Source of the DNA: Eledone cirrhosa
Lineage: Eukaryota
DNA length: 64,000 bases
Reading direction: 5' to 3'
Assembly: GCA_964016885.1 (NCBI GenBank)
Contig: OZ024741.1
Coordinates: 203,856,001 to 203,920,000 of the forward strand
The notes under the pieces were generated by a model. It was not told the origin of the DNA. It made no database searches and saw only the letters and a program-made list of their open reading frames with translations. Each line of letters starts with the position of its first letter. Position 1 is the first letter of the stretch. Both the position numbers and the translations under genes were made by a program. This document shows, one piece after another, positions 1 through 28,815 of the stretch.

Positions 1-724
1 ACAACCACCAGGTCAGGTCTATTGTGTTCCAGTTTTTTGTCCGTCTGTATCCTAAAATCCCACAGCACCTTCACCTGATTGTTCTCCATCACCGCCTCTG
101 GCCTATGATCATACCATTTCTCAGAATGTGGTAAATTGTTTACTTTGCACAGGTGCCAGTGGATCACCCTGCCCATCACATCGTGTCTCCAGCCCTTATA
201 TGGGTCTGGGCTAGGTGTTTACACTCGGACACAATGTGAGCCACAGTCTCCTCTCTCTCTCCACAGATCCTGCACAGTGGGCTAGCCTCCTCCTTGTAAA
301 TATGGTGCTTCAACCACTTCGTTTTGAGGGCCTGCTCCTGTGCAGCCATTAGCATTCCTTCTGTAGCCTTTTTGAGGTCTCCTCTTCTCAACCAGTTCCA
401 TGTCTGTGGATCTCTAAATTCAGTTTTCTCAAAGAAGGTACTATGAAGGGATTTTCCCTTAAGGCTGCTCTTCCTCCTTGATGTTATTTCCTCCTTGGAC
501 ATCCCCTGGCCTACTGTCCCCTCCTTCAGTACAGCTCTGAGCATTGGCTCCTTACTATAGGTCACGTATTTGTATAGGTTGTTTTTCTCCATCTGAACAC
601 AGTCCTCTATGCTGATAAGACCTCTTCCACCCTCAGATCTCCTTAGGTAGAGTCTATCGACATCACTCCTCTTGTGGAACATGTTGTAGATAGTCAATAG
701 CTTCCTAGTCTTCCTATCCATTTC

Positions 725-728
<4 letters not shown>
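1..728 (-). mobile_element. R4/Dong-like non-LTR retrotransposon, family A copy A1 (5'-truncated; continues past window start)
   Basis: Translation DRLYLRRSEGGRGL...CRICGEREETVAHIVSEC (CCHC finger), with REL region HNRPDLVV at the window edge; nearly identical to 16504-17980; 5' junction fused to (ATT)n. Confidence 0.9.
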
Positions 729-776
<48 letters not shown>

Positions 777-782: not shown

Positions 783-962
783 AGCAGTACCGGTAGAGGG
801 TCGGACGCCATGCTTTCCAGCATAGTTACGTCTGAGTTCAAATCCCGTCGAGGTTAACTTCGTCTTTCATCCTTACTGGGTCTATAAAATAAAGTACCAG
901 TAATGTACTGGATAATTGCTGGCCTTGTGCCAAAAATAGAAACAATTATTATTATTATTATT
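783..962 (+). mobile_element. Cephalopod-type tRNA-derived SINE with (ATT)n tail
   Basis: B-box-like GAGTTCAAATCCC, core TTTCATCC..ATAAAATAAAGTACCAG, ends AGAAACA(ATT)n; many related copies in the window. Confidence 0.85.
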
Positions 963-3900
963 GTTCTTTGAGTCACAGTCATTGATGTTATTTAACTGGA
1001 AAGTTTTGTTGAAATGAATATCAAGCCGCTACCTGCAGCCTCAGATATTCAGGACGTATCGGAGGGTTCTTGCTGTTCCCAGCAAGCATGCCTTTTGAAG
1101 TGTTCCAAAAAGCGGGACTGGACTATCTTTCTTTAACCATCATTGGAAACTCTTTGAGATAGTACCTAGTGCTCCTATGACAATCGGGACGACTCTGACT
1201 TCATGGCGGTTCCAAATCCTTTTTAACTCCCACTTTAAGTCCTGGTATCGGTTAATTTTCTCCCTCTCCTTTTCTTGCACTCTCGTGTCAAATGGGCAGG
1301 CTACATCTACAATCAGGCACGATCTCTTTTCCTTGTCCAAAACCACCAGGTCAGGTCTATTGTGTTCCAGTTTCTTGTCCGCCTGCATTCTAAAATCCCA
1401 TAGCACCTTCACCTGATCGTTTTCTATCACCGACTCTGGCTTATGCTCATACCACTTCTCAGAATGTGGTAAATTGTTTACTTTGCATAGGTGCAGTGGA
1501 TCACCCTGCCCATCACATCATGTCTCCAGCCTTTATAGTGAGTCTGGGCTAGGTGTTTACACTCGGATACAATGTGAGCCACAGTCTCCTCTCTCTCTCC
1601 ACAGATCCTACAGTGGGCTAGCCTCCTCCTTGTAAATATGGTGTTTCACCCACTTCGTTTTGAGTGCCTCTATGCGGATAAGACCACTTCCACCTTCAGA
1701 TCTCTTTAAATAGAGTCTATCGACATCACTCTTCTTGTGGAACATGTTGTAGATAGTCAATAGCTTCCTAGTCTTCCTATCCATTTCTTTTTGTTCAGCA
1801 ACATTCCATTTCAGAATTCCCGCACTCTACTTAATAATAGACACAGCTCGGGAATATTCACTGCACTTATGACATTCCTACTATTTAGACGTGATTTTAA
1901 TACACTCCTTACTCTCCTTATGTACTCAGATCTTATCAATTCCTTCATTTTTTTTTTTGTTCTTGATGTCATCTGCCTCCAGAGCACCTAAATATTTGTA
2001 TCCTTCAGTGTCAATTTCCTTTATCATCTCACCTGTTGGTACCTGGATTCCGTTTCTTCTGATCAATTTACCCCTTTTCATCACTAGGACTCCACACTTA
2101 TTAATAACAAATTGCATACATATATCATTGCTGAAAATATGGACAGTGTCAACAGGTACACCCATCTCCTTCTCACTCTTCCCAAAGAGTTTAAGATCGT
2201 CCATGAAGAGGAGGTGGTTGATGGTATGCTCTCACTTTTCGCAGTATAATGGTCAGGGGTATCAGGGCAAGGACAAACAACAGAGGGGACAAACTATCTC
2301 CCTGGAAGATACCTCTCTTGATCTTCACGCCATCCAAGGATTCTCCACCCGATGTTAATTCTGTTTCCCAGGACTTCATACTTTTGCTCAACAACTGTCT
2401 GATGTTATCTGCCACCTTTAAGATCTCTAGGCTTTTGGTTATCCAAGAATGAGGTACCATGTCGAATGCCTTTTTGTAGTCTATCCATCCCATGGCAAAA
2501 CCAGTGTGTCTCCTCCTGCAATTCCTCATTACCATTTTATCAATAAGTAGCTGGTCTTTTGTACCACGGGACTTCTTTCGGCATCCTTCCTGTTCGTCCG
2601 GTAACAAGTTGTTTGTGTGGAGGTGATGGTAGATTTCCTCAGACACAATGCTTGTTAACAGTTTCCACATTACGAATAGACATATCATAGGTCTATAGTT
2701 GGTAACATCATTACCCTTGATTCGGTCTTTCATTACCAGGACTGTGGTACCCTTTGTCAACCACTCTGGTACCTCACCCGACATCAAGCAGTCATTGAAC
2801 ATGGTTGTCAGTTTCGGGTGGAGGGATGTTATATTTTTAATCCAATACCCCTGCATACCATCTGGGCCTGGTGATTTCCAGTTGGTTAGTTTTCTGGCCT
2901 TCCCTTTAAGCGTTTCAACTGTGATACTTAAATCACTTTGTTGGTGTGCTTGTTCACTCATCTCCTTTTGTACTGTCTCAATCCACACTGCCTGATCATT
3001 ATGTTCAACATCCTGCTCCCATATTCCTCTCCAGAATGTCTTAGTCTGTTCCGCCTCAGGGATCAAGTCGTTGCCTCTTTCTTTCCCTTCAAGCTGCCCA
3101 AACAACATCTTCTGGTTGTTGTCAAACATGCGGTTCTGCCTATACTGACTGACTCTGCTCTCACAACGCCTAATCTTTGCACTCTTTGCTACAATGCGTT
3201 GCCTCAGTTCCTCTATGATAATATTTAGCTTTTTCCTCCTAGTTTTGTACTTTATTTCCAGTCTATTTTTAGTGTCTATGTTTTGTAGTGTCCCATTCAG
3301 TAGGAACTCAAACTTTCCAATGTCATTTCTCATTTCCCTGATTTGACCATTCAGTCGTTTCTTCCACCAAGGTTCTGATCTTTCTTGTTTGTTGTTTCCT
3401 CTCGCTTTTATGCCAAGTAATTTCCTCACCGCATTTGCTGTTGCTTTGAGGATATTGTTGCATTGGTGAAGGTTCCTCGCCTCAAGGTATGGGATGACTT
3501 TGTTTACCTTAGCTGTTGTTTCTTTTAACTTTTTCCTGTCTACAAATCTTAGGTTCATAGGTTTTCCATTATCATTGTTCATTTCATCTACTACTAAGTT
3601 TAGGATATCAACCAAATTTTGTCCTAGCCCGTCAGCATTCATTTCCTCAATGGCGGCATCTTTGTTCCAGGTGTTATTTATGTCAGCATTCAGGTCATTG
3701 TCTGCTTCGGATGCTTCCTCAGGTCTCTCAACCTCTTCACCTTCATTTCCCACTGACTCGTTTGCCTGGCATACTCCACTCTCCATTTCCAACCTAATCT
3801 CTCTGCTCAGTTCCTCCAGTTCCAACCTGCTTATCCATCCATTAGTTCTTATTACCCGAGCCTGCCCGGCCAATTTTTGTTCATCTAATTTAAATAAACC

Positions 3901-4220
3901 AATCTCGTTCCAGATGTTATGCATCCGTTTCCTATAGCCTTTTTCCTTGGGGTTACTCTTCAGGTAACATTGCATAACAGTTCTATTCAATTCTTTCGTC
4001 CAGTTGGTTCTTGTCCCTTTCCTTCTTCTTCCTCCAACACCATCAGTATTTGGATGACAGTCTCCTCTTCACCGTTATTCGAACTGTTTAGATTCGACAT
4101 TTAAACACTCATATCGAGGATTGGTGAAAGTATAGTTACATAACCACCGGTGATTTCATCACCCCCCAGTGATTTCATCACCACCGGTGATTTTAGCGTG
4201 GCACCATCGCGCTGTAGATG
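963..4220 (-). mobile_element. R4/Dong-like element A2, near full length (5' boundary approximate)
   Basis: N-terminal WTKELNRTVMQCY..GYRKRM; RT motifs [35 protein letters not shown]; REL RPDLVV..IVDVACP..KINRYQDL; internal deletions. Confidence 0.9.
1041..4101 (-). pseudogene. Disrupted RT-REL polyprotein ORF of A2
   Basis: ORF pieces 2191..3990, 1926..2204 and 1140..1430 are colinear parts of one R4-type ORF ending LRYVLNI*. Confidence 0.85.
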
Positions 4221-4514
4221 AACATAAATAAATAAACAAATAAATAGATAAAAACTTTAAAAAATAAACATAAGTTTCATTGTATGTTTGAATATCTGAC
4301 TTAGTTTTTTTTGTTTGTTTGTTTTTTTCCTTTGCGTTTTTCGTTTTTCAAGGCCAGTAACATCGGTTACTAGTGTTGTTGTTGCTGCTGCTGCTAAGGG
4401 AAGTAGGAGTTGTTGTGTTCAAAATTTTTGAAATTTGTATTTGTTGTTGCGTTTGCTTCTGTCTGTGTTCTGTTCTATAATTTTTCGACTTGTTGCTTAT
4501 CATTATTATTTTTA

Positions 4515-4618
4515 TTCCTTTCATCCTTACGGGGCCGACAAAACAAAGAACCAGCAACACACCGGGACAATTGCTGGTTCCGTGCCAAAAGCAGAAACAA
4601 TTATTATTATTATATTAT
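4515..4618 (+). mobile_element. SINE 3' half with clustered T>C changes and ATT tail
   Basis: Aligns to SINE copies at 49050-49140 and 61565-61650 with about 10 T>C changes in about 70 bp. Confidence 0.75.
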
Positions 4619-5179: not shown

Positions 5180-5453
5180 TGTGGCGTGCGGTGGCCGGGG
5201 GGGGGGGGGGGGGGGGTGCTCGACCGGAAGGGGTTTTTGAGTGCTCGACCGGAAGGGGTCTTTGACCGGAAGGACGCTCGACCGGAAGGGCCAGGAGAGA
5301 GCCTCTCTCTGGTGGTGACCAGCATACGGTGAGGACGCGTTTTGGGCAGCTCCCGGTTTTAAGCAGTCGGACGCACGTGGAAGAGGAGTACCTGCAGTGG
5401 AATTTAGCGGCGCCTGTGAAAAGCGGTAAGTGAGATAGCTTTTTCTAACCACA
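5180..5453 (+). mobile_element. 5' LTR of a Ty3/Gypsy element
   Basis: TGTGG...CCACA inverted termini; four internal GACCGGAAGG repeats; PBS-like TTCGGCGACT follows at about 5460, then gag. Confidence 0.7.
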
Positions 5454-5467
5454 AGCTATTTCGGCGA

Positions 5468-5502
<35 letters not shown>

Positions 5503-5526
5503 ACTTGCCGCAAAACAAATCAGAAG

Positions 5527-6288
5527 ATGGCGACAAGACTACGGATGAACGAAGCTATCAGGCCATTCACCGGGGAAGGTGATGTTGTCGCTTGGCTGCG
5601 GAAGGTTCGGCTGGTCGCGGGCTTGCAGAAGATAGAAGACGTGGCCGGTCTCATTGCATTGTACCTCGAGGGTGACGCGTTGGTACTCTTCCTTGAGTTG
5701 GACGAGCACAGCCAAAGAGATGTGCAGAAGATTGAGAGGCGTCTGATGGATGCATTCGCCGAGGGACCATTGGCGGCTTTTGCTAAGCTGGCGAGAATCA
5801 GGTGGAATGGTGAGCGCGTCGACATTTTCGCAGCGGAAATAAGGCGGTTGGCTATGTTGGCGGGCTACCAGGCAGAATGCGAACGCACGGTGCGGTTGGC
5901 ATTCATCAATGGATTTCCGGACGACATAGCGGTGAAACTGCAGCAAGTCCCGGGGTACAAGGAGATGGAAATGCGTTCACTGGTGGAACAAGCCCGGATC
6001 ATAGCGGAAGATGCCAAAAAGAGTGTCGCGGCGATAGCGACTACGGAGGCTCAGGACACCTGGCAGCGAAATGGTCAAAGGGAGGCAACCTCGGCACGCG
6101 GCCGTTCGCGAGAATTTAAGGGCCGCTGTTTTAGGTGTCAGGGCCCGCATATGGCTAGAGACTGTAGAGAATCGAAGCCGGATATAATCTGCTACCGGTG
6201 TAAGCGACCAGGCCACATCGCTACTAACTGCGACCAGGGAAACGGTCCAAGGGGAACTACTGCGCCGGTAGTTGCCCCTTACGAGTAG
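5527..6288 (+). CDS. gag: Ty3/Gypsy Gag
   Basis: Intact 253-aa ORF; capsid-like PFTGEGDVVAW; two zinc knuckles CFRCQGPHMARDC and CYRCKRPGHIATNC. Confidence 0.85.
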   Translation: MATRLRMNEAIRPFTGEGDVVAWLRKVRLVAGLQKIEDVAGLIALYLEGDALVLFLELDEHSQRDVQKIERRLMDAFAEGPLAAFAKLARIRWNGERVDIFAAEIRRLAMLAGYQAECERTVRLAFINGFPDDIAVKLQQVPGYKEMEMRSLVEQARIIAEDAKKSVAAIATTEAQDTWQRNGQREATSARGRSREFKGRCFRCQGPHMARDCRESKPDIICYRCKRPGHIATNCDQGNGPRGTTAPVVAPYE

Positions 6289-6294
6289 CGGCGC
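6237..6294 (+). promoter_or_regulatory. -1 ribosomal frameshift signal (G GGA AAC plus H-type pseudoknot)
   Basis: Heptamer 6237-6243 in the gag frame; stem 1 6249-6260/6268-6280; loop GCGCCG pairs with CGGCGC 6289-6294; the -1 frame is open into the protease. Confidence 0.75.
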
Positions 6295-6765
6295 TGCCGG
6301 TGGTGGAAGTCTTCGTGAGGGGGAAGCCACAGCGAGCCCTCGTGGATACGGGCTGTACGACGACACTGGTGACCGCGGGGGTGGCGCAGAGGTGGGGAGG
6401 GAAGAGCAGCGTAAGGGCAGTCGACGGCAGGAAAATTGAATGCCGAGGTCGCAGCGAGATGGAAATAGCGGTACGGGGAAGGAAGATAAGGCTTTCCGCC
6501 ATCGTGGTAGACAGTGTGGTGGATGGGATCGGCGTGGTTATGGGCATGGACGCGATTGGCCGTCTAGGGGGGCGTCACGGTGAACAATGTCGGTGTGTCG
6601 TTTGGCGCCGCTGCATCGGTATGCGCTGTGAGTGCACGTCATGAGAACCAGAAGGCCCACGAGGGGCAATACCCCGCTTACACTGTACAGGACAAGGACT
6701 TCAAGGCCGTGTTTGATGGGCAGCGATGGGTTGTTGAGTGGTACTGGAAGGGAGAACCACCAACA
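6243..6765 (+). pseudogene. Retroviral-type aspartic protease (pol 5' part), truncated before RT
   Basis: ALVDTGC and VVMGMDAI motifs; frameshift near 6570; homology ends after WVVEWYWKGEPP. Confidence 0.8.
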
Positions 6766-9700
6766 GTGATGAGTAGGAGGGCAACGTCCGTGGCACCCGT
6801 ACCAAGGCCACGGACAACTAAAGCAGCAGCATCAGTGGCGGCAACACCAATAGCTACATTTGAAGTAGCTACACAAGCAACAAAATTGCCGAAGAGGGCT
6901 CCATTACCACCACCAACAGCCGTGGAGCACATACCCCTCCCAGACGCCACAGAATCCGACATGGAGTTTGAGGCGGGAGTGAAGTGGCAAACGGTCTGCC
7001 ACAAAAAAAACCCCCAAAAAACCCCCTTAGCTTCGCCCTCCAAAAGCGAAGGCACACAAAGAGGGGTTAAGGCAGCAAGGAAACTTGCAGCAACATCACC
7101 ACCATCACCATCACCACCACAAGCACCACCGCCAACAGCAACCACACCACCACCAGCATCACCAAAAACAACAACAGCGCAAACAAAACAAAACACACAC
7201 ACCAAACAGCAACAAGAAGAAAACAGCAACAAAATCACCTCTCCCCCCAAAAGGTACACAGCCATAAAAATGGCAAAAAAAAACTCATACAATATATAAA
7301 GCAGCACACAGACATCACAGAAAAAACTACTACACCACACCAACACCAAGAACTCTCCCGCATCATTGAAATCTCAATAGAACAGTATACACTTTTAAAA
7401 CAAAAATTCCACAACGTAGTTGGAGACTTCAGCGGGTCGGTTACCAAGAGGATATACACTTACATCCTCTTGGAAACACCCATGACCAGCCAAAGGGACG
7501 GTTCTACTGTCCCTTTACCACACGATCAAGGTAAGTGACCCTTTCTCACTTGCCCCGTTTCTCATCCAACATGGCCGTACTCAGAATAGGCAGTATAAAT
7601 GCACGTGGCCTGGGGTCATCTTGGAAGCAGGGTCACCTGCTCAACGACCTCAGGTCACTAAACATAGATGTGGTGGCCATCAGCGAGACCAGAATCTCCG
7701 AAGCACGAGCCTTCGCATCGATCTTCGGCGGCTACGATGTATGCGCATCTCCCAGCCGTCCAGGATCGGGGGGAGGGGTTGCCGTCCTTTTTCGGAGAGG
7801 CTTGGATCTCGCCATACGGGCCATCTTCCTAAACCCAGAAGGTAAGTCGGTGGTGCTGGACGTGACCGGCACAGAAGGCAACGCTTTCAGGCTAGTAGCC
7901 GTCTATGCCCCGACAGGGACAGGACGACCAGATTTCTTTAGACGTCTAGAGACCTTTCTGGGCGACTGGAACGGTATCTTGGATGCAGGCTGGGATTGTG
8001 TGGGGCTAGTAGATAGGAGAGGAGGGTGCAAGAGCCTCACCAACCTGCTCAGACGTTTTGAACTGTCTGACAGGTCTCGACTGGATCACCCGAATGTGCC
8101 AATGTGGACATGGACAAACCGCATCGGGTCATCCAGGTATTCTGCAGGGAATTAGATAAGGCTAGTATAAGTTGTCCACAATTTAAAATAGTCGACTACA
8201 CAGACCACAAATTTTTGATCTGTGAGATCGACATAGACAGACTTCATAGACAAGGACCCGGTTACTGGAAGCTGAACGCGTCTTTCCTGGCGCGCAAAGC
8301 CTACAGAGACCGGATTAGCATATTAGTTAAGCGGACGTTGACGGGAGCGGTCGTCAATAACAGGTGGTGGTTCGCCCTGAAAAGGGCAATTAAAGTAGAG
8401 TCGATTAGGATTAGCAAAGGACTAGTGATAGAGGAAAATAGAGTAGAGGGAGAGCTAGTCAGAAAGCTAGAAGAGGCGTTTAGGACAGGCATCGCAACCG
8501 ACGTGCTTGCGGCGAGATTGGCACTCGACCAATTCTTCAACGCAAAACACGAAGACTGCGTTGTCAGAGCTAGAGCACGTGCTCTGAAACACGAGGGGAC
8601 AAAAGCCGTCCAATGGGCCCGGGTGGCAGAGGCGCGACGTGGCAACAAAGCCACAATTCGGTCTTTATCTGACCAAAACGGGCGCGTGTTGCTCGAACCG
8701 AGCAGATGTGTGAAAGTTTTCAGCAGCACTTTGCTGAACTGTTCGGGAGCAGCGGCGGGCCGGATCGGAGTATGGACTTCAGTGCATACCTCGACGGGCT
8801 GCCTCGGGTCTCGACGACCGCAGCACAGTGTTGCAAAAAGCCAATAACATCCGGTGAAATACGAGAAGCGATGGCTAACTGCACGAGGGGTAAATCGCCA
8901 GGTTTGGGTGGTCTGCCCTACGAGCTTTATGCATTTATGCCAGACTTGTTCGGTGACCTCTTGGCAGACGTCTACTGCAACTGGCAGCAGAACGGGAGCA
9001 TTCCCAGTTTTGTGAGCGAGGGAGCGATGGCGCTGTTGAGAAAAGACCCGAACAAGGGGAATGTTATCGATAACTTCAGGCCCATAACCCTGCTAAACGC
9101 AGAGTTCAAGATTTTGGCCAAGGTGTTAGCAACGAGGTTGGCGTTTGTCGTCAAGGGTCTGGTGGGAGAGGCGCAGCCATGTGCCATTCCGGACAGATCC
9201 ATACACGACAACCTCCACCTCATGCGATATACCATAGAGAGACTGGTTAAGGAACCTGGCACGGGTGGGTCTTTGATCAACTTGGATCAATCTAAAGCAC
9301 TTGATATGCTCGACCATCGGTACGTGGCGGCGGTCCTCGAGGCAGCCGGTTTCGGGCCCGTTTTCAGCGACATCTGCTCAGTTGTGAGGGTGAACGGTCA
9401 CCTGTCGCAGCCGTTCAGCATCATGCGCTCGGTCCGCCAGGGTTGTCCCCTCTCGTCCCTCTTGTATGTATTGGCTCTCGAGCCGTTACTGCACAAACTG
9501 GGGGCAATGAGGGGCGTCCCACGCCAATTAGTATGCGGGAAATCCGAGTCGGCTTAACCCTACGACGTCACCGTCGTGGTTTCGAGCACCAGACACTTCC
9601 AGATGCTCGGCATCGCTCTCAAGGAATACGAAGCGGTGCAAAGATAAACCAGGAAAAGTCGGTGGGCTTGCAGCTCGGCACCTGGAGAGGCAAGTCCATG

Positions 9701-10893
9701 CCGTCCGACGCGTGGAGGACTGGGCATGCCATGGCTGATGATACGCAAACATGCGCTGAGGTTGCGACATCTCTGGTTCTTTCTTGACGGTGAACAGGTG
9801 TGGTCGCCGTTCACCAGGCACGTTTTCCCACATCTCGTCTCCTTGACGGAGCTTCAGTCCTAGTTCAGGAAAAGACCGAGGATAGTGCTTGGAAACTGGA
9901 ATGTCTCCAGGCGCTCACTGACCTCTGCCAGCTGGGCACCAGTATCGGTGGAACATCCACCTCGGCGTTCTATAGAGGACTAGTGGAGGGGAAGAGCGAC
10001 GACGTTCTCGGAGAGATCTTGGGCGTCGAAGAAGATCAGCTGTGTGCTCTCTTCCGGAGAACTTTCAGCCCAGGGCCTATGGAAAACTTCCAAAAATCCC
10101 TGGCCTAGCAGTGCTACCGGGGAGCGTTGCCGGTTCGAGATAAGCTCTACAGGCACTGAAGTGCCGTCAGCCGAGCCTATCCGAGATGCTCGCAGAGCGA
10201 CGAAACCATCGTGCACGCACTCGTTCAGTCCCCGAGCATTGCTGACTTGTGGAGCTATGTCGAACAGTTGCTGTCGTGTGTAGGACTGATCCGGTTATCG
10301 ACTGAGTCCATTGTGCAGATGGACTCGCCGTCTTCCTTCGAGGGGGAAGGACAGGCGGTTTTTATCTGCCTGGTATCCATAGCGAAAGATATTGTGTGGT
10401 GGACAAGGTTGAAAGGGTTAAAGACAGACACTTTCCTCTTCGGCGAATCCCTAATTAACTTTTTCAAGTTTCACTTGAAGAGGAAAATCAGGGTGGAGAG
10501 GCAAGTGCTGCCTTCTAGCAAGTTTGTTGAAAGGTGGGTGAATGTAGCGAGAATGGTCCGAGTGAACGGGACCGCTCTGAATATACGTCTGTAGTTTGAG
10601 AAATGGAAAAATTGAGAGAGGGCACTTGCCCTGGTGGTCAGGGTGGCCGTGGTCTTTTGTGTGGTTTCCGCCACGAGTAACCCTCGGAGGTTTCCCCCCT
10701 ATTGGGGAATGTTTCATTGTTTCAATTTTCATTTTTATTGTTTATATATATATATATATATATGTTTCTATGTCCTTTTTCTTTTCTTATATAAATAATA
10801 AAAATCTTTACACGCACAAAACCCACAACGTACGGTCGGGTGCCGTCTGTAATGTTTTTCTTGATGTCATCCCTTGTGGCCAATAAATAAATC
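6766..10893 (+). mobile_element. Tx1/L1-group element B1 (5' end joined to Gypsy)
   Basis: Pro/Thr-rich ORF1 C-terminal part, ORF2, and 3' UTR ending TTGTGGCCAATAAATAAATC then (ATT)n. Confidence 0.85.
7571..10594 (+). pseudogene. Tx1-like ORF2 (APE-RT-Cys finger), disrupted
   Basis: LRIGSINARGL, ISET, VYAP, GDWN, TDH, GPGYWKLN, NFRPITLLN, VRQGCPLS. Confidence 0.85.
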
Positions 10894-10917
10894 ATTATTA
10901 TTATTATTATTATTATT

Positions 10918-13490: not shown

Positions 13491-13508
13491 ATTATTATTA
13501 TTATTATT

Positions 13509-16481: not shown

Positions 16482-16503
16482 GTTAATTATTATTATTATT
16501 ATT

Positions 16504-17978: not shown

Positions 17979-17980
<2 letters not shown>
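16504..17980 (-). mobile_element. R4/Dong-like A6, 5'-truncated
   Basis: Open 463-aa C-terminal half (thumb, CCHC, REL); (ATT)n on both sides. Confidence 0.9.

Positions 17981-18051
<71 letters not shown>
17980..18051. repeat. (ATT)24 microsatellite
   Basis: Direct. Confidence 0.95.
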
Positions 18052-18853: not shown

Positions 18854-20283
18854 ATGGAGCATCGGCGCCTATGCACCGTGTCATATCGGACGATAAACAC
18901 AAAATCACGCCGAGTGGAACGGGCATCCGAGTCCCAGATACAAAAAGCTTTGGAACATGTGTGGGCGAAAAAAAACCACATCAGACGTGGGCAGAAATAT
19001 GGAACCGTGGATGTGTTCTTTGGAACCCCACAGGAAGCCAGAGAGCACTCCGTGGCCCCATTAAGAAGTGACGACTTCACACTCGTCCCAAGCTATTGTG
19101 GTCAGAGACTCGTGAAGATCAGGGTGACCCACGTTCCGCCGGCCATCGAAATTCCCTGGCTCATGGCTGCCGTCCTCGCCGACATCGGGGCCAATTCGAA
19201 AATAATTGAGTAAACAAAAGAGAAGCAGGACTGGTCTGGATCTGGGATGGAGCTCCTGATCCAAGCGGACCAAAAGAACATTGAGGAAATTCCAGAGGTT
19301 ATAGACCTCAATGACGGTAGCCACCTCACCGTAATCGTTGAAGGTAGAAGGCCTAGGTGTGGCGTTTGTGGCGAAGGAACCCACCTAAAGGCTTTCTGCC
19401 CTCAGGCTAAAAAGTTGAAGCCACCTCTCCTACCAACCCCAGTGACTCAACCATAAAAACCAGCAGCAGAAATGGCAGCAACAACTGTAGCAGCAACAAC
19501 AGAAGCAACTGTAGCAACAACAATCCCAGCAACTGTAGCAGCAACAGTAGCAAAACCAACACCACCACCACCCACCGCGCCAGAATTAGCACCAGCGCCT
19601 CCACCATCCACCACCCCACAACCATAACCAACGCCTATGGAGGATTTTTCCACTCCCCGACCTATTGCAATTGGAGACAGATTGTGACGACGAGGAGGAG
19701 TGGGAAACTGTATCTGGAAAAAAGAAAAAAAAAAGAACCCAAAAAAGAAAAAATCTTCTTCCTTCGCCCTCCAAAAACAAAATGCAGGGGGAAACATAAA
19801 AAAAAACAAAAAAGTTAAGACAGCTATGCCACCACCGACACCAACATCACCAGCCACATCACCACAAACACCAACACCATCACCATTATTAACCCCAACA
19901 CCACCATCGCCAACACCACAAAAATTACCAAAAAGCGAAACAGAAACAAACCCACAACAAACGCAAACAAAATAAAACAACCAAAACGATACACACTACA
20001 CAGATTCGATTTGAACAACCAATTATTACACTACATCCAACACAACACCAGCATCACAGAAAAAGACTACACAACACTCCAAAAATTCCCACCACCTCCA
20101 CACATACAAATCACTCTCATCACACAGAAAACGTACACGGCACTAAAACTAAAATTCACCAAGGACATCGGAGACTTCCGACAAACACTCTCCAGGAGGA
20201 TTTATAAGGACATCCTTCTGGAGGAGGCCACAAGCAGTGAGAAGGATGGAAAAACCATCCTTCCTCTACGGGAAGTGAGGTAA
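18854..20283 (+). pseudogene. Tx1 ORF1 (zinc knuckle), disrupted; start uncertain, possibly 18263
   Basis: Colinear with B3 ORF1; CX2CX4HX4C; stop 36 nt before the ORF2 ATG. Confidence 0.7.
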
Positions 20284-20319
20284 TGTGGTCTTTCCCATCT
20301 TCTTCCACTCCTTTTCAAC

Positions 20320-23300
20320 ATGACCTCACTCAGAATAGGCAGCATAAATGCGCATGGCCTGGGGTCGTCATGGAAGCAGGGCCACCTGCTCAACGACCTC
20401 AGGCCACTAAACATAGATGTGGTTGCCATCAGCGAGACCAGAATCTCCGAAGCACGAGCCTTCGCACCGATCTTCGGCGGCTATGATATGTACGCATCTC
20501 CCAGCCGTCCTGGATCGGGGGAAGGAGTTGTTGTGCTTTTTCAGAGAGGTTTGGATCTCGCCATACGGGCCATCTTCCTGGATCCAGAAGGTAAGTTGGT
20601 GGTGCTGGACGTGACCAGCGGAGACGGGCAAGCTTTCAGGCTAGTGGCCGTCTATGCCCCAACAGAGGCAGGGCGGCCTGATTTCTTCCGGCGTCTGGAG
20701 ACCTATCTTGGAACGTCCCACTCTTTAGTATTAGTGGGCGACTGGAAAGGGATCTCAGACGCTGGGACTGTGTGGGATTAGTGGATAGAGGAGGAGGGTG
20801 TAAAAGCCTCGCAAACCTGCTCAGACGGTTTCAACTGTCTGACAGGTACCGTCTGGATTTCCCGAATGTGCCAATGTGGACATGGACAAACCGCATCAGG
20901 TCATCCAGATATAGGGTATTTTTGTAGGGAAATAGATAGGTCTAACATAGGCTGCCCACATTTCAAAATAGTCGACTACACGGACCACAAATTCGTGATC
21001 TGTGATTTGTGAGGTTGACTTATATAGGCTTCATAGACAGGGACCCGGCTACTGGAAGCTAAACGCGTCATTAACAGCGCGCAAAGCCTACAGAGACCGG
21101 ATTAGCGAACTAGTTAAGAAGGCGTTGACGGGGGCCATCGTCAACAACAGATGGTGGTTTGCTCTGAAAAGAGCGATTAGAATAGAGTCCATTAGGTTTA
21201 GTAAGGCTTTAGCAATAGAGAAAAATAGAGCAGATGGAGAACTAGTTAGAAAATGAGTAAAGGCATCGCTACCGACGTACTTGCGGCGAAATTGGCCCTT
21301 GACCAATTCTTCAATGCAAAGCTCGAAGGCTGCGTTGTCAGAGCTAGGGTGCGTGCTCTCAGACAGAGGGGACGAAAGCCATTCAATGGGCCCGAGTGGC
21401 GGAGGCGCGTCGTGGCAACAAAGCCACAATCCGGTCTTTGGTGGACCACGACAGGCGGATAACATAGATAATTTTAGGCCCATAACTCTGCTAAACACAG
21501 AGTTCAAGATTTTGGCCAAGGTGCTAGCAAAGAGGTTGGCGCTTGTCGTAGGTGGTCTGGTGGGAGAGGCGCAGACATGCGCCATTCTAGACAGGTCCAT
21601 CCACGACAACCTCCACCTCATGCGATACATCGTGGAGAGGGTAGCTAGGGAACATAGCACGGGTGGGTCCTTGATCAATTTAGATCAGTCGAAAGCTTTC
21701 GATAGGGTCAACCATCGTTATCTGGCGGCAGTCCTGAGGGCGGCTGGCTTTGGGCCCGTCTTCAGAGGCTGGATCGCTGCCATGCACAGCGATATCTGCT
21801 CTGTGGTGAGACTGAACGGTCACCTTTCGGAACCGTTCAACATCATGCGCTCGGTCCGCCAAGGATGTCCCCTCTCGTCCTTCTTGTACGTATTAACTCT
21901 CGAGCCATTACTGCACAAACTGGAGACGTTGAGGGGGCTCCCGCGCGAAGTAGGATACGGAAGATCCGTGTCAGCATATACGGAAGATGACACCGTAGTG
22001 GTGTCGAACGCCAAACACATCGAGGCGATCGGCACCACACTAAGAGAATACGAAGCTGTGACAGGAGCAATGATCAACCAGTAAAAGTCGGTGGGCCTGC
22101 AGCTCGGCACCTGGAGAGGCAGGTCCATGCCGTCCAACAGCGTCGTCGGGCGCTGGACGGACGGACCGGTTAAATTGATAGGGGTCTGGTTCGGTTCGGA
22201 ACTCCAGACGGACAAAAACTGGGATGAGGTGACGAGCAGGGTGGCTTCTCTCAACCAGAAATGGGCAGAGAGGAAGCTATCCCTGACAGGTCGCGCGGAG
22301 GTGACGAATGCGTACATCGCGTCCGTCATCTACTACCGCCTGACCGTCGTGCCTTGTCCTAAGCCTCGCCTGACTGCGCTGGAGCGTTTGCTCTTTCGCT
22401 TTTTGTGGAAGGGACGCGCTCCGATGGTCAGGTGGTCCATCTGCTGTAAACACCCGCTACGTGGAGGGCTGGGCATGCCGTGGCTGATGATGCGCAGACA
22501 CGCGCTCAGGCTACGACATCTCCACCTCTTCCTCGACGGTGATCAGGTGTGGTCGCCGTTTTCTAGAAGCGTCTTTCCCCAGCTCGTCTCCTTGACGGAG
22601 CTGCAGTCCTGGGTTAAGCGAAGACCGAGAGGGAGCGCTTGGAGACTGGAATGTCTTCAGGCGCTCACAGTCCTCGACGATTCGGGCAATGTGATCGGTG
22701 GAAACTCCACCTTGGCGTTCTATAGAGGATTAGTGGAGGGGAAGAGTGACGACGTACTTGGGGAAACTCTAGGCGTCGACGAAAATCAACTACCCAATGT
22801 CTTCGGAAGAACTTTCGGGCCGGGGCCTATGGACAACTTCCAGAAATCCCTGGCCTGGCAGTGCTACCGAGGAGCTTTGCCAGTTCTGGATAAACTCTAC
22901 AGGCATGGAGGTGCCGTCAGCCAGGCATGTACGAGATGCGTGCAGGGCGATGAAACCGTCTTGCACGCACTCGTCCAGTGTCCGAGCATTGCTGACTTGT
23001 GGGTTTATGTCGAACACCTGCTGTCGCGTGTAGGAAGGATCCGGCTATCAGCTGAGTCCATCGTGAGGATTGCCCCGCCCTCTTCCTTTAGCTGGGAAGG
23101 GCAGGCAGTTTTTATCTGTCTGGTGGCCATGGCGAAAGAGATAGTATGGTGGACACGTTTGAAAGGGCTGAAGACGAGCACTTACCTCTTCGGTGATGCC
23201 CTGATTAACTTTTTCAAATTTCATTTGAAAAGGAAAATCAGGGTAAAAAGGGAAGTGCTCTCTTCCCAGCATTTTGTTGAAAGATTGGTGAGCGAGGCAA

Positions 23301-23344
23301 GAATAGCCCGAGTGAATGAGCTTACTCTGAGTATGTGCCTGTAA
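20320..23344 (+). pseudogene. Tx1 ORF2 of B2, disrupted
   Basis: APE motifs, DQSKAFDRV, VRQGCPLS, AYTEDD, CTRCVQGDETVLHALVQC; internal deletion near 21456. Confidence 0.85.
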
Positions 23345-23604
23345 ATTGAAGGTGGAAAACTGGGAGAGGGAATTGCCCTGTTGGTCAGGGTCACCGTGGC
23401 TTTTTTAATGGGTTTTCTCCATGATTTTCATCGGAAGTCTCCCCCCTATTGGGGAATATTCTTTTTTTTTGTTACATCCTCTGTATTTGTTTTCTTACAG
23501 GCAGAAATGCCCATTTCTACCGTCCTGTACTGTCCTTAATGTCTTACTTTGTGTAAACCTTTGTGGTTAATAAAGAAAGCATTATTATTATTATTATTAT
23601 TATT

Positions 23605-26600
23605 GAGTCTGAACAGACGTCTTTTTGCTCGCTCTCGTATGTTTATTTATTTACCTGTCAAAACTTATTTAATGAATTTCTTGTTGTTGTGTAAGGCATA
23701 CAAGCCCTTGGACTTTGCCCTGTGAAGGGGAAAGAATAATATTTGGGCCTTTTGGCCCAAATATTTGAACTCTTTTACATTTTAAAAAAATTATCGAAAG
23801 AAAAAAAACAAAAGAAAACATGTCTGAGCCATGCGTTATGTCTGCTGTCGTGCAACAACGACGTAGAAGTTGAGAGGAGCGTTACGGCGAAATTAACAGA
23901 AATTGATACACCAAACACCACAGTACGGCACCATTTCGGTGTTGTTCAAGTCAGAAGCCCTCGCTGTGAAACACGCTATGACTCCTTGCAAAACCAGCAA
24001 GGTCATAATGTACCCCTCCCACATGGGAAAAAGAACGGCCCGTCTCCGCATTTCCAGAATCCCACCAGGACTTGACATGTGGTGGCTTCTGGGATGTGCG
24101 ATTGTGGAGGGAACGGATACCGTCCCGATAGAAGTGACAAGAAATGCCAGAGAGGACTGGTCCGGGGTTGACCTGGAGATATTTCTCCAGATCAGGCCCG
24201 AGAATGTGAAGAGAATCCCGGACCACATCAGCCTTCAGAATGGGACGGTCATTCATATTATGACCGAGGTCAAAAGGCCGCATTGTTTTGTTTGTGGGGA
24301 AAAATCCCATTTGCGAGCCTTCTGCCCTCAACTGCTGAAAGATGCAAGGGGTCGAAGGGCTCCTCTGCTGCCGACCCCAGGGAGAGGACCACAACCAACA
24401 CCAGCACCGACAAAACCACCAACAACAACATCAATAGAAAGACCACCAGCAACATTGACCACCCGGGGGGGAAACCAGGAAAGTTGTCAAATTCCCCCTC
24501 CCCCAAAAAATACACACACCAATAAAAAACATAAACACACACACAGCACACTTACAGACACAGACCCCTCATCAAACAACCTAAACAGTAGTGAAGATGA
24601 GGGAAAACCAAAATCCCCCAAAATACAAAAAAGAAACACAAAAAGAAAAAAAAATCAAGAAATAACAACATCACCCACTATAAAAAAATGCAGACACCAC
24701 CCACGCGAACATATCCCCAATAACACCAACATCAACACCACCATCACCATCACCAGAATCCCCCAAACGCAAACAACCTAAACAGACGCAAGAACAAATA
24801 TACACACAAACATCTGAAATCACAGACACCGCACTCACTACAAACACAGACACAACCGAAACAACACCATCAAAACCATCACCAGCACAGCCACGCAAAC
24901 AAATACAATCCCACCAACAAAATATACAAAACTTTGTGCTCGTCAGGAGGGCCAACAGGGAACTGATGGCCCTCGTAGCACGAAGTGAAGATGTACAAAA
25001 AGAGGGGGAAATTTTTATATCGAGCACATTTCGCGTGCCGGAAGATTTGTTTCTGGTGCGAATGTCGCTCGATTTATACAAAGAGATACGAGACGTGGGA
25101 ACCCCGAACGTAAAACACACTTCAAGACTTTTAAAGGGGTTCCCAAAAGAAACCCCACCAACTATGGCGGTCGAACCACCCGACCTTCACATGGCCGTAT
25201 TAAGAGTAGGAAGTTTAAATGTTCGAGGCCTGGGATCGTCCTGGAAGCAGGGTCACCTGCTCAACGACCTCAGGTCTCTAGAAATGGATGTAATTGCCGT
25301 CAGCGAGACCAGGATTTCCGACACGCGCGCACTAGCTCCCATTTTCGACGACTATCAGATCTTTGCATCTGTTAGTCGGCCGGGAATGGGAGGCGGGGTG
25401 GCAGTGTTGTTTAGGAAAGGCCTGGATCTCGAGGTAAGGTAGATCTTCCGGGACCCGGACGGGAAGTTGGTGGTCTTGGACGAGAACAATAACGAAGGTG
25501 GTGCCTTTAGATTGGTGGCCGTCTACGCCCCTACTGGGGCAGAACGGCCGGACTTCTTTAGGCGCCTGGAAGCCTTTCTGGGTACGTCTCGCCCTTTACT
25601 GTTAGCGGGGGACTGGAACGGCATCTTAGACGCATGCTGGGACTGTGTGGGAGTATCCGATAGGAGCGGGGGTGCAAAAGCCTCAAGAACCTGATCAGCT
25701 AGTTCCAACTGTCTCACAGGTACCGACTAGATTTCCTTAATGCGCCAGTGTGGACCTTGACTAACTGCATAGGGTCATCTAGATCGTATATAGACAGGAT
25801 ATTCATTAGGAAAATAGACAGAAATAGTGTAAGCTGTTCACATTTTAAAACGGTCGCCTATTCAGATCACAAGTTTGTGATCTGTATGATCGACCTAGAT
25901 AAGACGCGTAGGTTAGGACCTGGTTACTGGAAGCTGAACATCTCATTTCCGGCACGTAAGGCTTACAGGGACCATGTCAACAATTTAGTTAAGAAAAGGT
26001 TGACAGGGGGAGTCGTCAACAATAGATGGTGGAGGGCTCTCAAAAGAGAGAGATAGGGTAATGTCGATAGAGTTTAGCAAAGAAGTAGCGTTAGAGAAAA
26101 ATAGAAAGGAGAGGGAGTTGGTAAATAAGTTAGACGAGGCTATTGGTAGTGGCATTGCAACTAATGTGCTAGCGGCGAGAATGGCATTAGACGATTTCTT
26201 CAATGCGAAACAAGAAGGTTGCATTGTCAGAGCTAAGGCGCGTGCTCTGAGAAACGAGGGAATCAAAGCTGTTCGATGGGCCCGCGTGGCAAAGGCGCAG
26301 CGTGGTAATAAAACCACGATTCGGTCTTTGACAGGCCGAAATGGACAAGAGCTGAGCGATTCCAAGTGGATGTGTGAGGCCTTTCGCCAACATTTTGCTA
26401 GGTTGTTCGGGGGAAGTGGTGGGTCAGAGGTGGTGGCGGACTTCAGTCCCTACCTCGATGGCCTGCCGCAACTCTCGACGGCTGACGCTGGGCGCTGCGA
26501 AAGGCTGATTACTTCAGCCGAGATTCAGGATGCCCTTGTCGGCTGCCCATTCAGGATGCCCAAGTCACCCGGTTTGGATGGTCTGCCCTACGAGCTTTAC

Positions 26601-28784
26601 GTAAATATGCCACACTTGTTCTCCAATTTCCTCGAAGCGCTCTACTGCAACTGGCAGCAGAAGTGACGCTAATAAGGAAAGACGAGAACAAGAGTGACAC
26701 AGACAATTTCAGGCCCATAACTCTGCTCAACTCAGAGTTTAAGATTTTGGCCAGGGTGTTAACGAAGAGGTTGGCGCTTTGGTTGGGGAGGCGCAAACTT
26801 GCGCAATCCCAACCAAGTCCATACACGACAACCTTCACCTGATGCGATACATCATAGAGAGGGTAGGGTGTAAACCTGGCTTCGGTGGGGCTCTGATCAA
26901 TTTAGATCAATCGAAAGCATTCGATAGGGTCGAACATCGGTACCTGGAGGCTGTCCTCAAGGCGGCTGGCTTCGGTCCCGTCTTCAGAAGCTGGATCGCT
27001 GCAATGTACAGCTCGGTGGTCAAAATTAATGGTCACCTCTCGGAACCGTTTCAGGTTTCCCGATCGGTCCGTCAAGGGTGCCCTCTCTCCTCCCTTCTGT
27101 ACGTATTGACTCTCGAGCCTTTACTGCAGAAGCTGGGGCTGTTGAAGTGCATCCCGCTCGAACCGGGACGCGGAAAGGCTGTGTCCGCTTATGCGGACAT
27201 CACCGTGTGGGTGTCGGACACCTCAGAAATCGAGGTGGTCGGCAACTTATTGGAGGAATATGAAAGGGTAACGGGAGCAAAACTTAACCCGGAAAAGTTG
27301 GTGGGCTTGCAACTCGGCACCTGGAGAGGAAAGTCCATGCCGTCCAACAGCGTCGTTAGGAGCTGGACGGACGGACCGGTAAAGTTGCTCGGGGTTTGGT
27401 TCGGGCCAGACCTCCAGGTGGATAAGAACTGGGACGAGGTGACAGGCAGGGTAGCCAGTCTCACCCAGAAATGGGCTGGGATGAAGCTATCACTGAAAGG
27501 TCGGGCGGAGGTGGGGAACGCGTACATCGCGTCCGTCATCTACTACCGTCTGACTGTCGTCCCTTGCCCTCGTTCGCGCTACGCCATCTTGGAGCGGCTC
27601 CTCTTCAAATTCTTGTGGAAGGGTCAGGTTCCGGTGGTGAGGCGGTCCATCTGCTGCCAGTACCCTCTACGTGGAGGGCTGGGCATGCCGTGGCTAATGA
27701 TGCGTAGACACGCGTTGAGGCTGCGGCATCTCCAGATATTCTGCCTAAACGGTGAACAGGTGTGGTCGCCGTTTGTCATACGGGCCTTTCCGCAGCTCGT
27801 CTCTTTGACTGAGCTGCAGTCCTGGGTCAAGAAGAGACCGAGACTGGGTGACTGGCATCTGGAATGTTGCCAGGCACTCACTGCCCTCTACCAGGCGGGC
27901 AATGCGGTCAGTGGAACTTCCACTCTCGAGTTATATAGAGGGTTAGTGGTGGGAGAGTGCTACAACGCACTCGGAGAGGCTCTGGGAGTCGACGAAGTCG
28001 AACTAACCAGTCTGTTCGGGAGGACTTTCCAAAAATCCCTCGCTTGGCAGTGCTACCGGGAGGCACTGCCGGTTCGAGATAAACTCTACAGGCACGGAAG
28101 TGCTGTCAGACGGACCTGCCCGAGATGCACGCAGAGCGACGAAACCGTTCTGCACGCACTCGTCCAGTGTCCGTGCATTACTGACTTGTGGAGTTATGTC
28201 GAACAGCTGTTGTCGCGTGTAGAACGGATCCGGCTATCGGCCGAGTCCATAGTGATGATCGACCTGCCGCCTTCTTTTGGCCAGGAAGGGCAGGCAATTT
28301 TCCTCTGTCTGGTGGCAGTAGCGAAAGAGGTTGTATGGTGGACGAGGTTGAAAGGACTGATGACAGAGACTTTTCTCTTCGGCCAATCCCTCATCAACTA
28401 TTTCAAGTTTCACTTGGAAAGGAAGGTGAGGGGGGAGAGAGAAGTGCTTCCCCCCAGTACATTTGCTGAAAGGTGGGTGAATGTGGCGAGAATGGCCCGT
28501 GTGAGTGGGCCTACTCTGGTCATGCGCCTGTAAGTGGGTAAATTTGAGGAGGAGAGGGGTGCCCTTCCAGGGTGCTCTTGAAGCGTCGGGTCGTTCAGGA
28601 TTGGTGGGGTACCTGAGCGAACCCTGGGTGGTCATCCCCCCTATTGGGGAATTTTTCTTGTATATTTCTTGTTACTTTGTTATTGTTATTCATATTGTTT
28701 ACTCGATTTTTCTATAAAACCCCACTGTCCCAGTCTTTTGTATTTTCACCTATATGTCGGCCTTTGTGGCCAATAAATGAAATC
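23605..28784 (+). mobile_element. Tx1-like element B3, probably full length
   Basis: ORF1 with KRPHCFVCGEKSHLRAFCP; ORF2; ends TTGTGGCCAATAAATGAAATC then ATTATT. Confidence 0.88.
25191..28533 (+). pseudogene. Tx1 ORF2 of B3, disrupted
   Basis: MAVLRVGSLNVRGL; 584-aa open C-terminal part with SAYADI and CPRCTQSDETVLHALVQC. Confidence 0.85.
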
Positions 28785-28815
28785 ATTATTGGTAGTAGTA
28801 GTGGGCGGTAGCAAG

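Follow-up and report, generated by a model that had tools for sequence, protein, structure and literature searches.

LINEs of two types, one with a restriction-like endonuclease (RLE) and the other with an APE-type endonuclease, lie against the same ATT repeats with opposite polarity in the genome of the octopod Eledone cirrhosa, and the question raised by this locus is whether these repeats are a true target and why the two types face opposite ways. The window analyzed here, that is, the whole stretch of 64,000 nt (GenBank assembly GCA_964016885.1, contig OZ024741.1, positions 203,856,001 to 203,920,000, forward strand), contains six RLE-type (R4/Dong-type) copies on the minus strand and three APE-type (Tx1-type) copies on the plus strand, just as a preliminary description of the letters had reported. 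The answer that we regard as quite probable is that Tx1-type LINEs and an abundant SINE insert into (ATT)n or ATTATT in one direction and R4/Dong-type LINEs in the opposite direction, likely because the Tx1 enzyme nicks the strand reading AAT and the Dong enzyme the strand reading ATT.

The Array and Its Elements

The features of the array are collected in Table 1. ATT touches 15 of the 18 ends of the nine LINE copies, and no poly(A) tail, as already remarked in the preliminary description, is present at any of their nine 3' ends. The plus strand carries, between -7500 and 29010, 13 runs of (ATT)3 or longer and no run of (AAT)3 or longer. An ATT run had been claimed at nearly every junction, and the positions listed for it do carry ATT, but three LINE ends are without a run and that at 28785 has two units only. 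These three are all 5' ends, namely those of copy R2, of T1, which is joined to a gag-protease fragment of an LTR retrotransposon, and of R3, which is joined to a 96-bp piece from a second R4-type family; full-length 5' ends are found in two Tx1 copies (T2 and T3) and one Dong copy (R2). The array had also been described as spanning 29 kb. It is, however, broken at about 4284-6769, where unannotated DNA is found together with a piece of a SINE and with the fragment of the LTR retrotransposon, which is outside the ATT system, so that there are two clusters of one polarity. Its onset lies upstream of the window, the left cluster reaching about -7425 (about 7.4 kb). The nine LINEs of the original inventory stand, but the SINEs, one of them between the runs at 729 and 945, and the second R4-type family had been left out of it.

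Table 1. Elements and repeat runs of the ATT array, in window coordinates.
Feature	Position	Strand	Remarks
R1, R4/Dong-type LINE	1..728	-	5'-truncated; 3' end 380 bases upstream of window, beside (ATT)6
(ATT)15 run	729..773	+	
SINE	783..944	+	start approximate; terminates ...GGCCTTGTGCCAAAAATAGAAACA ahead of ATT
(ATT)6 run	945..962	+	between 3' ends of SINE and Dong copy R2
R2, Dong-type LINE	963..4283	-	5' limit approximate; full-length 5' end; internal deletion near 1669; 5' junction without repeat run
SINE 3' fragment	4502..4611	+	flanked by (ATT)3 and (ATT)4
LTR-retrotransposon fragment	5215..6769	+	start approximate; gag (zinc knuckle) and aspartic protease; directly joined to T1
T1, Tx1-type LINE family 1	6770..10893	+	about 1.54 kb of 5' end missing; 5' junction without ATT; broken ORF2 (APE, RT)
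(ATT)8 run	10894..10917	+	common to T1 and R3, tail-to-tail
R3, Dong-type LINE	10918..13021	-	5'-truncated; 5' side joined to family X
Family X piece, second R4-type family	13022..13117	-	96 bp; matches copies at other loci with up to 100% identity
(ATT)5 run	13118..13132	+	
R4, Dong-type copy	13133..13490	-	short; internal deletions
(ATT)6 run	13491..13508	+	
R5, Dong-type LINE	13509..16485	-	5'-truncated
(ATT)6 run	16486..16503	+	
R6, Dong-type LINE	16504..17979	-	5'-truncated; ORF open through zinc finger and restriction-like endonuclease
(ATT)24 run	17980..18051	+	
T2, Tx1-type LINE family 2	18052..23580	+	full-length 5' end; CCHC knuckle in ORF1; frameshift in ORF2 (APE-RT-zf); internal deletion
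(ATT)8 run	23581..23604	+	T2 3' end to T3 5' end
T3, Tx1-type LINE family 3	23605..28784	+	full-length 5' end; internal deletions; broken ORF2
ATTATTGGTAGTAGTAGT	28785..28802	+	left copy of 18-bp target-site duplication of SINE; two ATT units only after T3
SINE	28803..29001	+	full length
Right copy of 18-bp duplication	29002..29019	+	array ends here

A Dong-type copy elsewhere (L174) has a CCHC motif, CRICGEREETVAHIVSEC, and a restriction-like endonuclease motif, RPDL..VDVA..E..K..Y, after the RT and no APE; its C-terminal part gives a weak alignment to the endonuclease region of the R2 element, whose RT is the best solved match. Homologues retrieved for the Dong-type protein bear no element names or generic ones. 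AAT repeats come next at 30 of 30 Dong 3' ends, these ends having been found by an exact pattern, and the 15 visible 5' junctions have (AAT)3 in 13 cases and (ATT)3 in none. Family X copies elsewhere are flanked by (AAT)n, which therefore serves two R4-type families at least, and (ATAC)n apparently serves a third.

The preliminary description supposed a single Tx1 family, whereas the window copies T1, T2 and T3 represent three, with 70-81% nucleotide identity. Exo_endo_phos, RVT_1 and zf-RVT were matched in the window Tx1 pieces (Pfam), and a CCHC knuckle, CX2CX4HX4C, was read in the ORF1 regions of T2 and T3, although the T3 ORF1 piece matched no Pfam family. An intact ORF2 of 1139 aa occurs in copy L194, and the best solved match of the Tx1-type ORF2 is human L1 ORF2p (E 1.7e-52), with R2 at 3e-21. 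The ORF2 domains point to the L1 group; the name Tx1-type is a provisional one drawn from architecture and target preference, the outgroups of the RT tree being unnamed or generically named sequences only, none of them labeled as Tx1, Kibi, Koshi or Keno. A count restricted to T3-type ends gave 2,539.

Polarity at Shared ATT Runs

In 405 sampled ATT runs, which are a non-random sample since most loci were found via element searches and many lie at one end of one contig (C1), Dong was minus in 96/96 and family X in 24/25 cases, while Tx1 was plus in 276/283 and the SINE in 120/122. Moreover, 53 runs lie between a Tx1 element and a Dong or X copy, and all of these pairs are opposed. The orientations, which might have proved random genome-wide, are therefore not random at the sampled runs. 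That the Tx1 and Dong endonucleases nick opposite strands is likely, because target-primed reverse transcription and the pattern of the duplications imply it.

ATT as Target of the Tx1-Type LINEs and the SINE

ATT might have been only a tail of the Tx1 elements. Genome-wide, however, in-phase (ATT)3 stands directly upstream of 579 of the 621 full-length 5' ends of the T2 family, against a background of 10 in 57,000 positions, and ATT was found at 5' ends in varied contexts for T2 (30/30) and T3 (30/30), the window's own copy being included in each set. The 5'-truncated copies have ATTATT within about 25 nt upstream in 27/51 cases and the opposite-polarity AATAAT in 2/51, the background of ATTATT being 2,135/57,000 (3.7%). 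The pure-tail model is rejected on account of the T2 5' ends and these truncated copies, and ATT is a target of Tx1, more than a tail. In addition, the excerpted text of PMC4494074 gives same-repeat flanks of more than 20% as the criterion of target preference, and the present proportions are 579/621 for T2, 27/51 for truncated copies and 16/20 for the ATCT lineage described below.

The preference is looser than that of Dong and is one for ATTATT, with which duplications also start. The Tx1 elements had been called "ATT-specific", which holds in that ATT is a real target, but a long microsatellite is not strictly needed, and (ATT)3 abuts the junction in 12/51 truncated copies. Likewise, regeneration of ATT on both sides was confirmed for full-length Tx1 (44/45) and for Dong (13/15), but not for about half of the truncated Tx1 copies: 24/51 have a 5' junction without ATTATT, mostly without duplication, and later deletion may be the cause of this. 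Target duplications of 10-20 bp starting with ATT are seen with the SINE and with some truncated Tx1 copies.

The SINE is abundant in the genome and has the same site and polarity as the Tx1 elements. Its 5' flanks are ATT-type in 78/105 and AAT-type in 1/105, and duplications other than pure repeat accompany 81/176 copies (control, 68/526), their lengths clustering at 12-18 bp with a fixed phase at the start. These duplications start with ATT and then run into unique DNA, which means that this ATT is host sequence. The tail of the SINE also appears to resemble those of the Tx1 elements: end-anchored scores were 20-22 with T1, with T3 and with the ATCT lineage, which shares the SINE-like tail equally with the ATT families, 14 for the T2 copy used and 0-1 for Dong, and 3 of 1,262 background 27-mers reached 20, all three being SINE-end-like. 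In an unanchored test of this short likeness, p was about 0.02 with either T1 or T3, and 0.24 with T2. Neither snRNA nor tRNA was detected in the SINE head (Rfam).

It might be argued that Tx1 itself adds ATT at both ends, as a tail at the 3' end and as a leader at the 5' end, that the endonuclease is loosely AT-preferring and that the arrays are passive accumulations. Pure ATT at full-length 5' junctions even where the 3' flank is not pure, the many truncated copies without 5' ATT and some duplications that start with ATATTT or ATAATT (loci L063 and L067) speak for this explanation. Truncated copies cannot bear a leader, yet more than half have ATTATT in the right polarity; the SINE duplications contain host ATT, and young full-length copies have long ATT runs on both sides, all of which make the explanation improbable compared with a true ATT target.

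The ATCT Sister Lineage

One Tx1-type lineage has (ATCT)n at 16/20 5' junctions. In a quick tree it is sister to T3 (SH-aLRT 98) and nested among the ATT families, and the ORF2 of the ATT and ATCT lineages are 67% identical. Most copies of each of T1-T3 have I at position 194 of the endonuclease, in a hairpin loop, and the ATCT copies have S there (6/6). The loop as specificity switch is a candidate only, because 37 other endonuclease positions also differ and one T3-binned copy has S194; no single endonuclease position cleanly splits ATT from ATCT copies.

This last result would suit another explanation, in which AUU-ended RNA pairs at nicks or breaks that the unstable repeat already contains, and such pairing rather than endonuclease preference sets the targeting. 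In the human L1 endonuclease, too, loop grafting altered the specificity in a non-modular way, and the authors favor a readout of DNA structure (PMC1950540). However, the duplications of 12-18 bp with a fixed phase are as expected of enzyme-set nicks, and 3' junctions with one or no ATT unit (L063, L067 and L274) conflict with an obligatory long AUU tail, so targeting by RNA pairing is even less probable than the addition of ATT by Tx1.

Proposed Mechanism and Origin of the Array

Under the preferred reading, a true target with nicks on opposite strands, target-primed reverse transcription would start at AAT-strand nicks for Tx1 and at ATT-strand nicks for Dong. Each insertion would leave the repeat on at least one side, so that one seed run could grow into a same-polarity pile, and Tx1 enzymes would move the SINE via a putatively common 3' terminus. 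Full-length Tx1 RNA would begin with a few AUU units and the cDNA of this leader would anneal upstream, hence the nearly always pure ATT on the 5' side of full-length copies. Such an (AUU)n leader is likely, to judge from junctions in which the 3' flank is duplicated in 0/6 informative full-length copies, the set consisting of 6-7 copies, two of them heavily deleted. Finally, one sister lineage would have exchanged its ATT target for ATCT.

Local duplication or misassembly in place of separate insertions is very improbable, and local duplication is rejected as the origin, for although R1 and R6 share 98.8% identity across 729 bp and no contig piece (three runs) spans even one element, the truncation points, 3'-end variants and neighbors all differ, the Tx1 copies belong to three families of 70-81% identity, and junctions of these types are seen again at dozens of unlinked loci. 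Independent insertion, as asserted from the beginning, is consistent with the differing truncation points and flanks. Nor is the locus unique, such arrays being common in the genome.

Relation to Known Elements and Meaning

These elements are not a new class, because Dong elements in TAA repeats and Tx1 elements in further microsatellites have already been published. According to the excerpted text of the papers, Dong of Bombyx mori, DongAg, and also DongBg of the snail Biomphalaria lie on TAA microsatellites (PMC3812793), Dong belongs to the R4 lineage (PMC3774820), and Kibi uses (TC)n, Koshi (TTC)n and crocodilian Tx1 (TTCC)n or (TTTC)n (PMC4494074, citing Kojima and Fujiwara 2004). Dong-R4 is, in addition, abundant and recently active in octopus (PMC13282606). 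The Eledone copies with RT, C-terminal CCHC and restriction-like endonuclease, and with the TAA-phase repeat on both sides, resemble these Dong elements, for which a mollusc precedent thus exists. They differ from the known accounts, as excerpted, in that at least two R4 families share (AAT)n and one is apparently on (ATAC)n, and in that no APE element in the same runs is mentioned there. B. mori Dong has an HDV-like ribozyme; a custom descriptor without positive control gave 0 matches at the 5' ends of seven Tx1 and Dong sequences from Eledone, and Rfam searches of the element sequences returned only two chance-level matches.

Like Kibi, Koshi and crocodilian Tx1, as far as the excerpts describe them, the Eledone Tx1-type element is a two-ORF APE-RT LINE of the L1 group preferring a microsatellite; unlike them, it targets ATT or ATCT and has a cephalopod host. 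In the literature, Repbase being outside the search, no ATT- or ATCT-targeting Tx1 was found, and the choice of microsatellites by APE-type LINEs is called poorly understood in the excerpted part of PMC3812793. The Eledone SINE is comparable to crocodilian SINEU with Tx1-Mar (PMC4494074, excerpt) in having the Tx1 target preference and tandem insertions around the duplicated target, but its target is ATTATT instead of Mariner and it also appears to resemble the last 25 nt or so of the LINE. The proposed leader recalls R2 with upstream 28S on its RNA (PMC3774820, excerpt), where the uniform 5' junctions are ascribed to target sequence with which the RNA begins and to the annealing of its cDNA; however, the R2 leader is set by a ribozyme, and that of Eledone Tx1, which belongs to a different clade, is proposed from the junctions.

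A broader view can be offered only tentatively and may well fail: octopod retroelements would divide microsatellites by strand and motif, Tx1 taking ATT and the derived ATCT and R4 taking AAT and ATAC, with AUU leaders laying new runs at two-unit sites and Tx1 enzymes driving the abundant SINE. If this is true, the elements create landing pads for one another as well as part of the microsatellites of the genome, and the ATT/ATCT pair maps a target change in an APE-type LINE. Intact ORF2 copies are at hand from two close lineages with different targets, junctions can be read in hundreds of copies, and the other strand of the ATT repeat probably serves an unrelated restriction-like enzyme, so target choice is directly testable by domain swaps. 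The 2026 octopus annotation maps transposon-dense clusters, and the word "target" is absent from it (PMC13282606); the sharing of ATT runs would be a mechanism for such clusters in octopus genomes, and the Tx1 families are a candidate partner LINE of a very abundant SINE.

Organization of the Array

The order of the elements in the window, which is drawn from a 3.0-Gb assembly, was obtained from self-comparison, open reading frames (ORFs) and Pfam domains, and was checked against fuller copies elsewhere in the genome. As in the preliminary description, all six R4/Dong-type LINE copies (Dong, R1-R6) are on the minus strand and all three Tx1-type copies (T1-T3) on the plus strand. That nearly every junction is ATT holds for 15 of the 18 LINE ends (at one, two units only) and fails at three; all 13 runs of at least three units read ATT on the plus strand. 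T1-T3, however, are not the single family supposed but three, 70-81% identical and on separate branches of the reverse transcriptase (RT) tree. Every LINE copy in the window is broken, and intact T2 ORF2s of 1139 aa are present elsewhere in the genome.

Elements in and beside the array (window coordinates; negative, upstream; SINE, short element of the same ATT runs; X, second R4-type family, flanked elsewhere by (AAT)n)
Feature	Position	Strand	Remarks
Left cluster	from about -7425		(ATT)10, inverted-5' Dong copy, (ATT)18, full-length T2, (ATT)6, R1
Dong copy in L191	about -7392 to -5713		Inverted 5' segment; ATT runs at both outer sides
Dong R1	1-728	-	
(ATT)15, SINE, (ATT)6	between R1 and R2	+ (SINE)	
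Dong R2	963-~4283	-	5' end full-length, without repeat run there
DNA without annotation, SINE piece	between R2 and LTR fragment		
LTR-retrotransposon gag-protease fragment	5215-6769		Fused to T1, running directly into its ORF1 region across a few common bases, perhaps through a deletion or through a truncated insertion
Tx1 T1	6770-10893	+	Then (ATT)8
Dong R3	to 13021	-	Fused to 96 bp of X; then (ATT)5
Dong R4		-	Then (ATT)6
Dong R5		-	Then (ATT)6
Dong R6		-	Then (ATT)24
Tx1 T2	18052-23580	+	Then (ATT)8
T2 hairpin	18190-18215		Strong, GC-tipped, shortly before ORF1
Tx1 T3	23605-28784	+	Then ATTATT
T3 hairpin	23735-23765		As in T2
SINE	after ATTATT of T3		18-bp duplication; closes array
Satellite	29516-32177		58 bp (29-bp subunit), ~46 copies, 92% matches; starts ~500 bp past array end
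Third R4-type family	34431-37660	-	
Third R4-type family	38916-39431	+	
Broken LINE	40694-42646	+	Endonuclease-like and RT pieces unlike array families (possibly RTE or CR1 type)
Third R4-type family	44051-47420	-	ATAC repeats also at 5' side

The plus-strand elements carry an ORF1 with a CCHC knuckle and an ORF2 with APE, RT and zinc finger, whose best solved match is human L1 ORF2p, and the minus-strand elements carry RT, CCHC and a PD..D..E..K motif, with R2 as best solved match. The Tx1 and R4 names are provisional, based on architecture and target and on octopus annotations listing L1-Tx1 and Dong-R4. Among named homologues of the plus-strand LINE protein, one in Argonauta hians scores highest (73% across the RT region), which makes an octopod host likely; the next-closest Tx1 RT relatives (P0006-P0099) are mostly ENA proteins of about 50% identity, closer than fish or turtle matches. 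Hairpins similar to those of T2 and T3 occur in the 5' UTRs of T1 and of the ATCT lineage, a Tx1-type sister lineage described below. In five loci (L219, L220, L226, L228, L232) T1, T2 and T3 sequence alternates inside one element, which suggests recombination or template switching between families. For silkworm, mosquito and snail, PMC3812793 places Dong on TAA but files it as APE-type; this filing is contradicted by PMC3774820 and by the sequences here.

ATT as Target

ATTATTATT lies directly upstream in 579 of the 621 genomic matches of the T2 5'-terminal 21-mer, against a background for this type of flank of 10 in 57,000 positions (20 evenly spaced 10-kb regions). An ATT run also precedes the 30 best T2 and the 30 best T3 5' ends without exception (each set containing the window's own copy), a few with one mismatch and in varied contexts. 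The 5' flanks thus carry ATT, so it is not only a tail. The ATT specificity first proposed for Tx1 is a preference, as truncated copies show. Of 111 Tx1-type 3' ends, 18 full-length and 51 truncated copies remained after removal of 11 unmatched to T1-T3, 20 with the 5' end beyond the locus, and 11 more that belonged to other ORF1 subfamilies or had an N gap or a chaining error. Among the truncated, ATTATT occurs within about 25 nt upstream in 27 and AATAAT in two (background 3.7%), and (ATT)3 abuts the 5' junction in 12, against 16 of the 18 full-length copies. In several of them, duplications extend into unique DNA and start with ATTATT, ATATTT or ATAATT (L063, L067, L079, L165). Because of these flanks and duplications, the Tx1 site is host ATTATT, best inside a run, with a preference looser than that of Dong. 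AAT repeats follow every one of 30 Dong 3' ends sampled in genome order, and the 15 visible 5' junctions show (AAT)3 in 13 and (ATT)3 in none.

Polarity and Proposed Mechanism

Orientation is not random genome-wide in a sample biased toward these elements, namely 405 non-redundant runs of at least four units outside the window, from all loci studied. Abutting ends are minus for Dong (96/96) and X (24/25) and plus for Tx1 (276/283) and the SINE (120/122). Since a tail is unable to account for 5' ends, these were counted separately, and the expected polarity is found in 35/35 for Dong, 10/11 for X, 135/137 for Tx1 and 58/58 for the SINE. In all 53 runs that separate a Tx1 from a Dong or X copy, the two neighbours have opposed orientation, and most of the ten exceptions to polarity lie where AAT and ATT runs meet. 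The Tx1-type 3' motif, ATCT lineage included, occurs 21,684 times in the genome (control 98), one Dong 3' 21-mer 3,848 times, and an X-T2-Dong cluster (L256) in one of 20 evenly spaced sampled regions; the window is a long case of a common arrangement.

In target-primed reverse transcription the strand nicked first is the complement of the element's sense strand. From this rule and the orientations, the Tx1 nick would fall on the strand that reads AAT and the Dong nick on the one that reads ATT, as proposed in the preliminary description. Each insertion would split the run and keep repeat of the same polarity alongside, so that piles could grow from one seed run.

The 5' flank is near-pure ATT in 44 of 45 full-length Tx1 copies having both ends. 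The 3' flank is not pure ATT in 10 of the 45; four running into a SINE were set aside, and in none of the six informative copies left, nor in the window's T3, is the 3' flank duplicated at the 5' side, unlike in the SINE, where this is often so. Blunt insertion might produce such junctions, and so might recombination among copies at a later stage. Because the 5' flank is near-pure ATT without a copy of the 3' flank, the simplest reading, with roughly an even chance of being right, is that full-length Tx1 RNA carries a short (AUU)n leader, whose cDNA would anneal upstream. The (AUU)n leader is proposed by analogy with R2, where the leader is 28S sequence on the RNA and upstream annealing of the cDNA is proposed in a portion of PMC3774820.

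The SINE

ATTATT comes next in 124 of 176 SINE copies with a 3' end. Duplications of at least 8 bp are found in 107 of the 176; 81 of these are not pure repeat (control, 68/526 mismatched pairs) and are mostly of 12-18 bp, and the 5' flanks of the 105 copies with a 5' end are ATT-type in 78 and AAT-type in one. The final ~25 nt are similar to the Tx1 terminus (CCTTGTG..AA...GAAA): with end anchoring, T1, T3 and the ATCT lineage score 20-22, the T2 copy chosen scores 14 and Dong 0-1. Of 1,262 background 27-mers three score at least 20, all SINE-end-like. An unanchored test is weaker (shuffles 46/2,000 for T1, 482/2,000 for T2, 40/2,000 for T3). With site, polarity and terminus in common, the ATT-targeting Tx1 families are likely the driver of the SINE. 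It makes up 2,942 of 200,000 sampled bases, and no published octopus SINE matching it was found. In a T2 subfamily (L198, L199, L201, L202, L208, L240, L275) a SINE occupies a constant position 5' of ORF2 (reference 1889-1904), with a duplication of ~15-20 bp starting ATTAAA, so a master copy with an internal SINE continued spreading.

Families at Other Microsatellites

The shared Tx1 3' motif followed by (ATCT)n has 947 exact matches in the genome. One locus (L180, G000:C1:12373476-12381476) is a tandem pile with TATC runs between copies and an open ORF2, 67% identical to T2; L291-L310 are further loci. A sample of 20 copies in genome order shows ATCT repeats at the 5' junction in 16 and ATT in none (background 1%). 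A quick tree of RT sequences (46 rows, with a thinned set of ATT copies, SH-aLRT support only, octopod clade base not resolved) places the ATCT copies as monophyletic (99) and sister to T3 (98), with T1+T2 apart (91), and because of this a change from ATT to ATCT would be the simpler direction. Residue 194 of the endonuclease, which lies in the hairpin loop examined by PMC1950540, is I in the majority of copies of each ATT family and S in the ATCT lineage; 37 further positions also differ, and one T3-binned copy has S at 194. The third R4-type family, with ~30% protein identity to Dong, ends in (ATAC)n, and several copies lie together in L227; it is likely an (ATAC)n-targeting R4 lineage.

Relation to Known Elements

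The cited work behind microsatellite-targeting Tx1 is reportedly that of Kojima and Fujiwara in 2004. No ATT- or ATCT-targeting Tx1 and no target preference of cephalopod LINEs were found in the portions of the literature covered, including PMC4640811, PMC4824008 and PMC8967140; Repbase and Dfam, beyond this scope, may already record these targets. In the text portion covered of the octopus annotation PMC13282606 the word 'target' occurs 0 times. The portion of PMC4494074 covered places Kibi on TC, Koshi on TTC and crocodilian Tx1 on TTCC/TTTC, and also describes SINEU. The observation is real, largely as first read, with the corrections given. Compared with known microsatellite-targeting LINEs, the new features are two Tx1 targets, ATT and ATCT, a partner of opposed strand on the ATT repeat, and a SINE that is likely a passenger.
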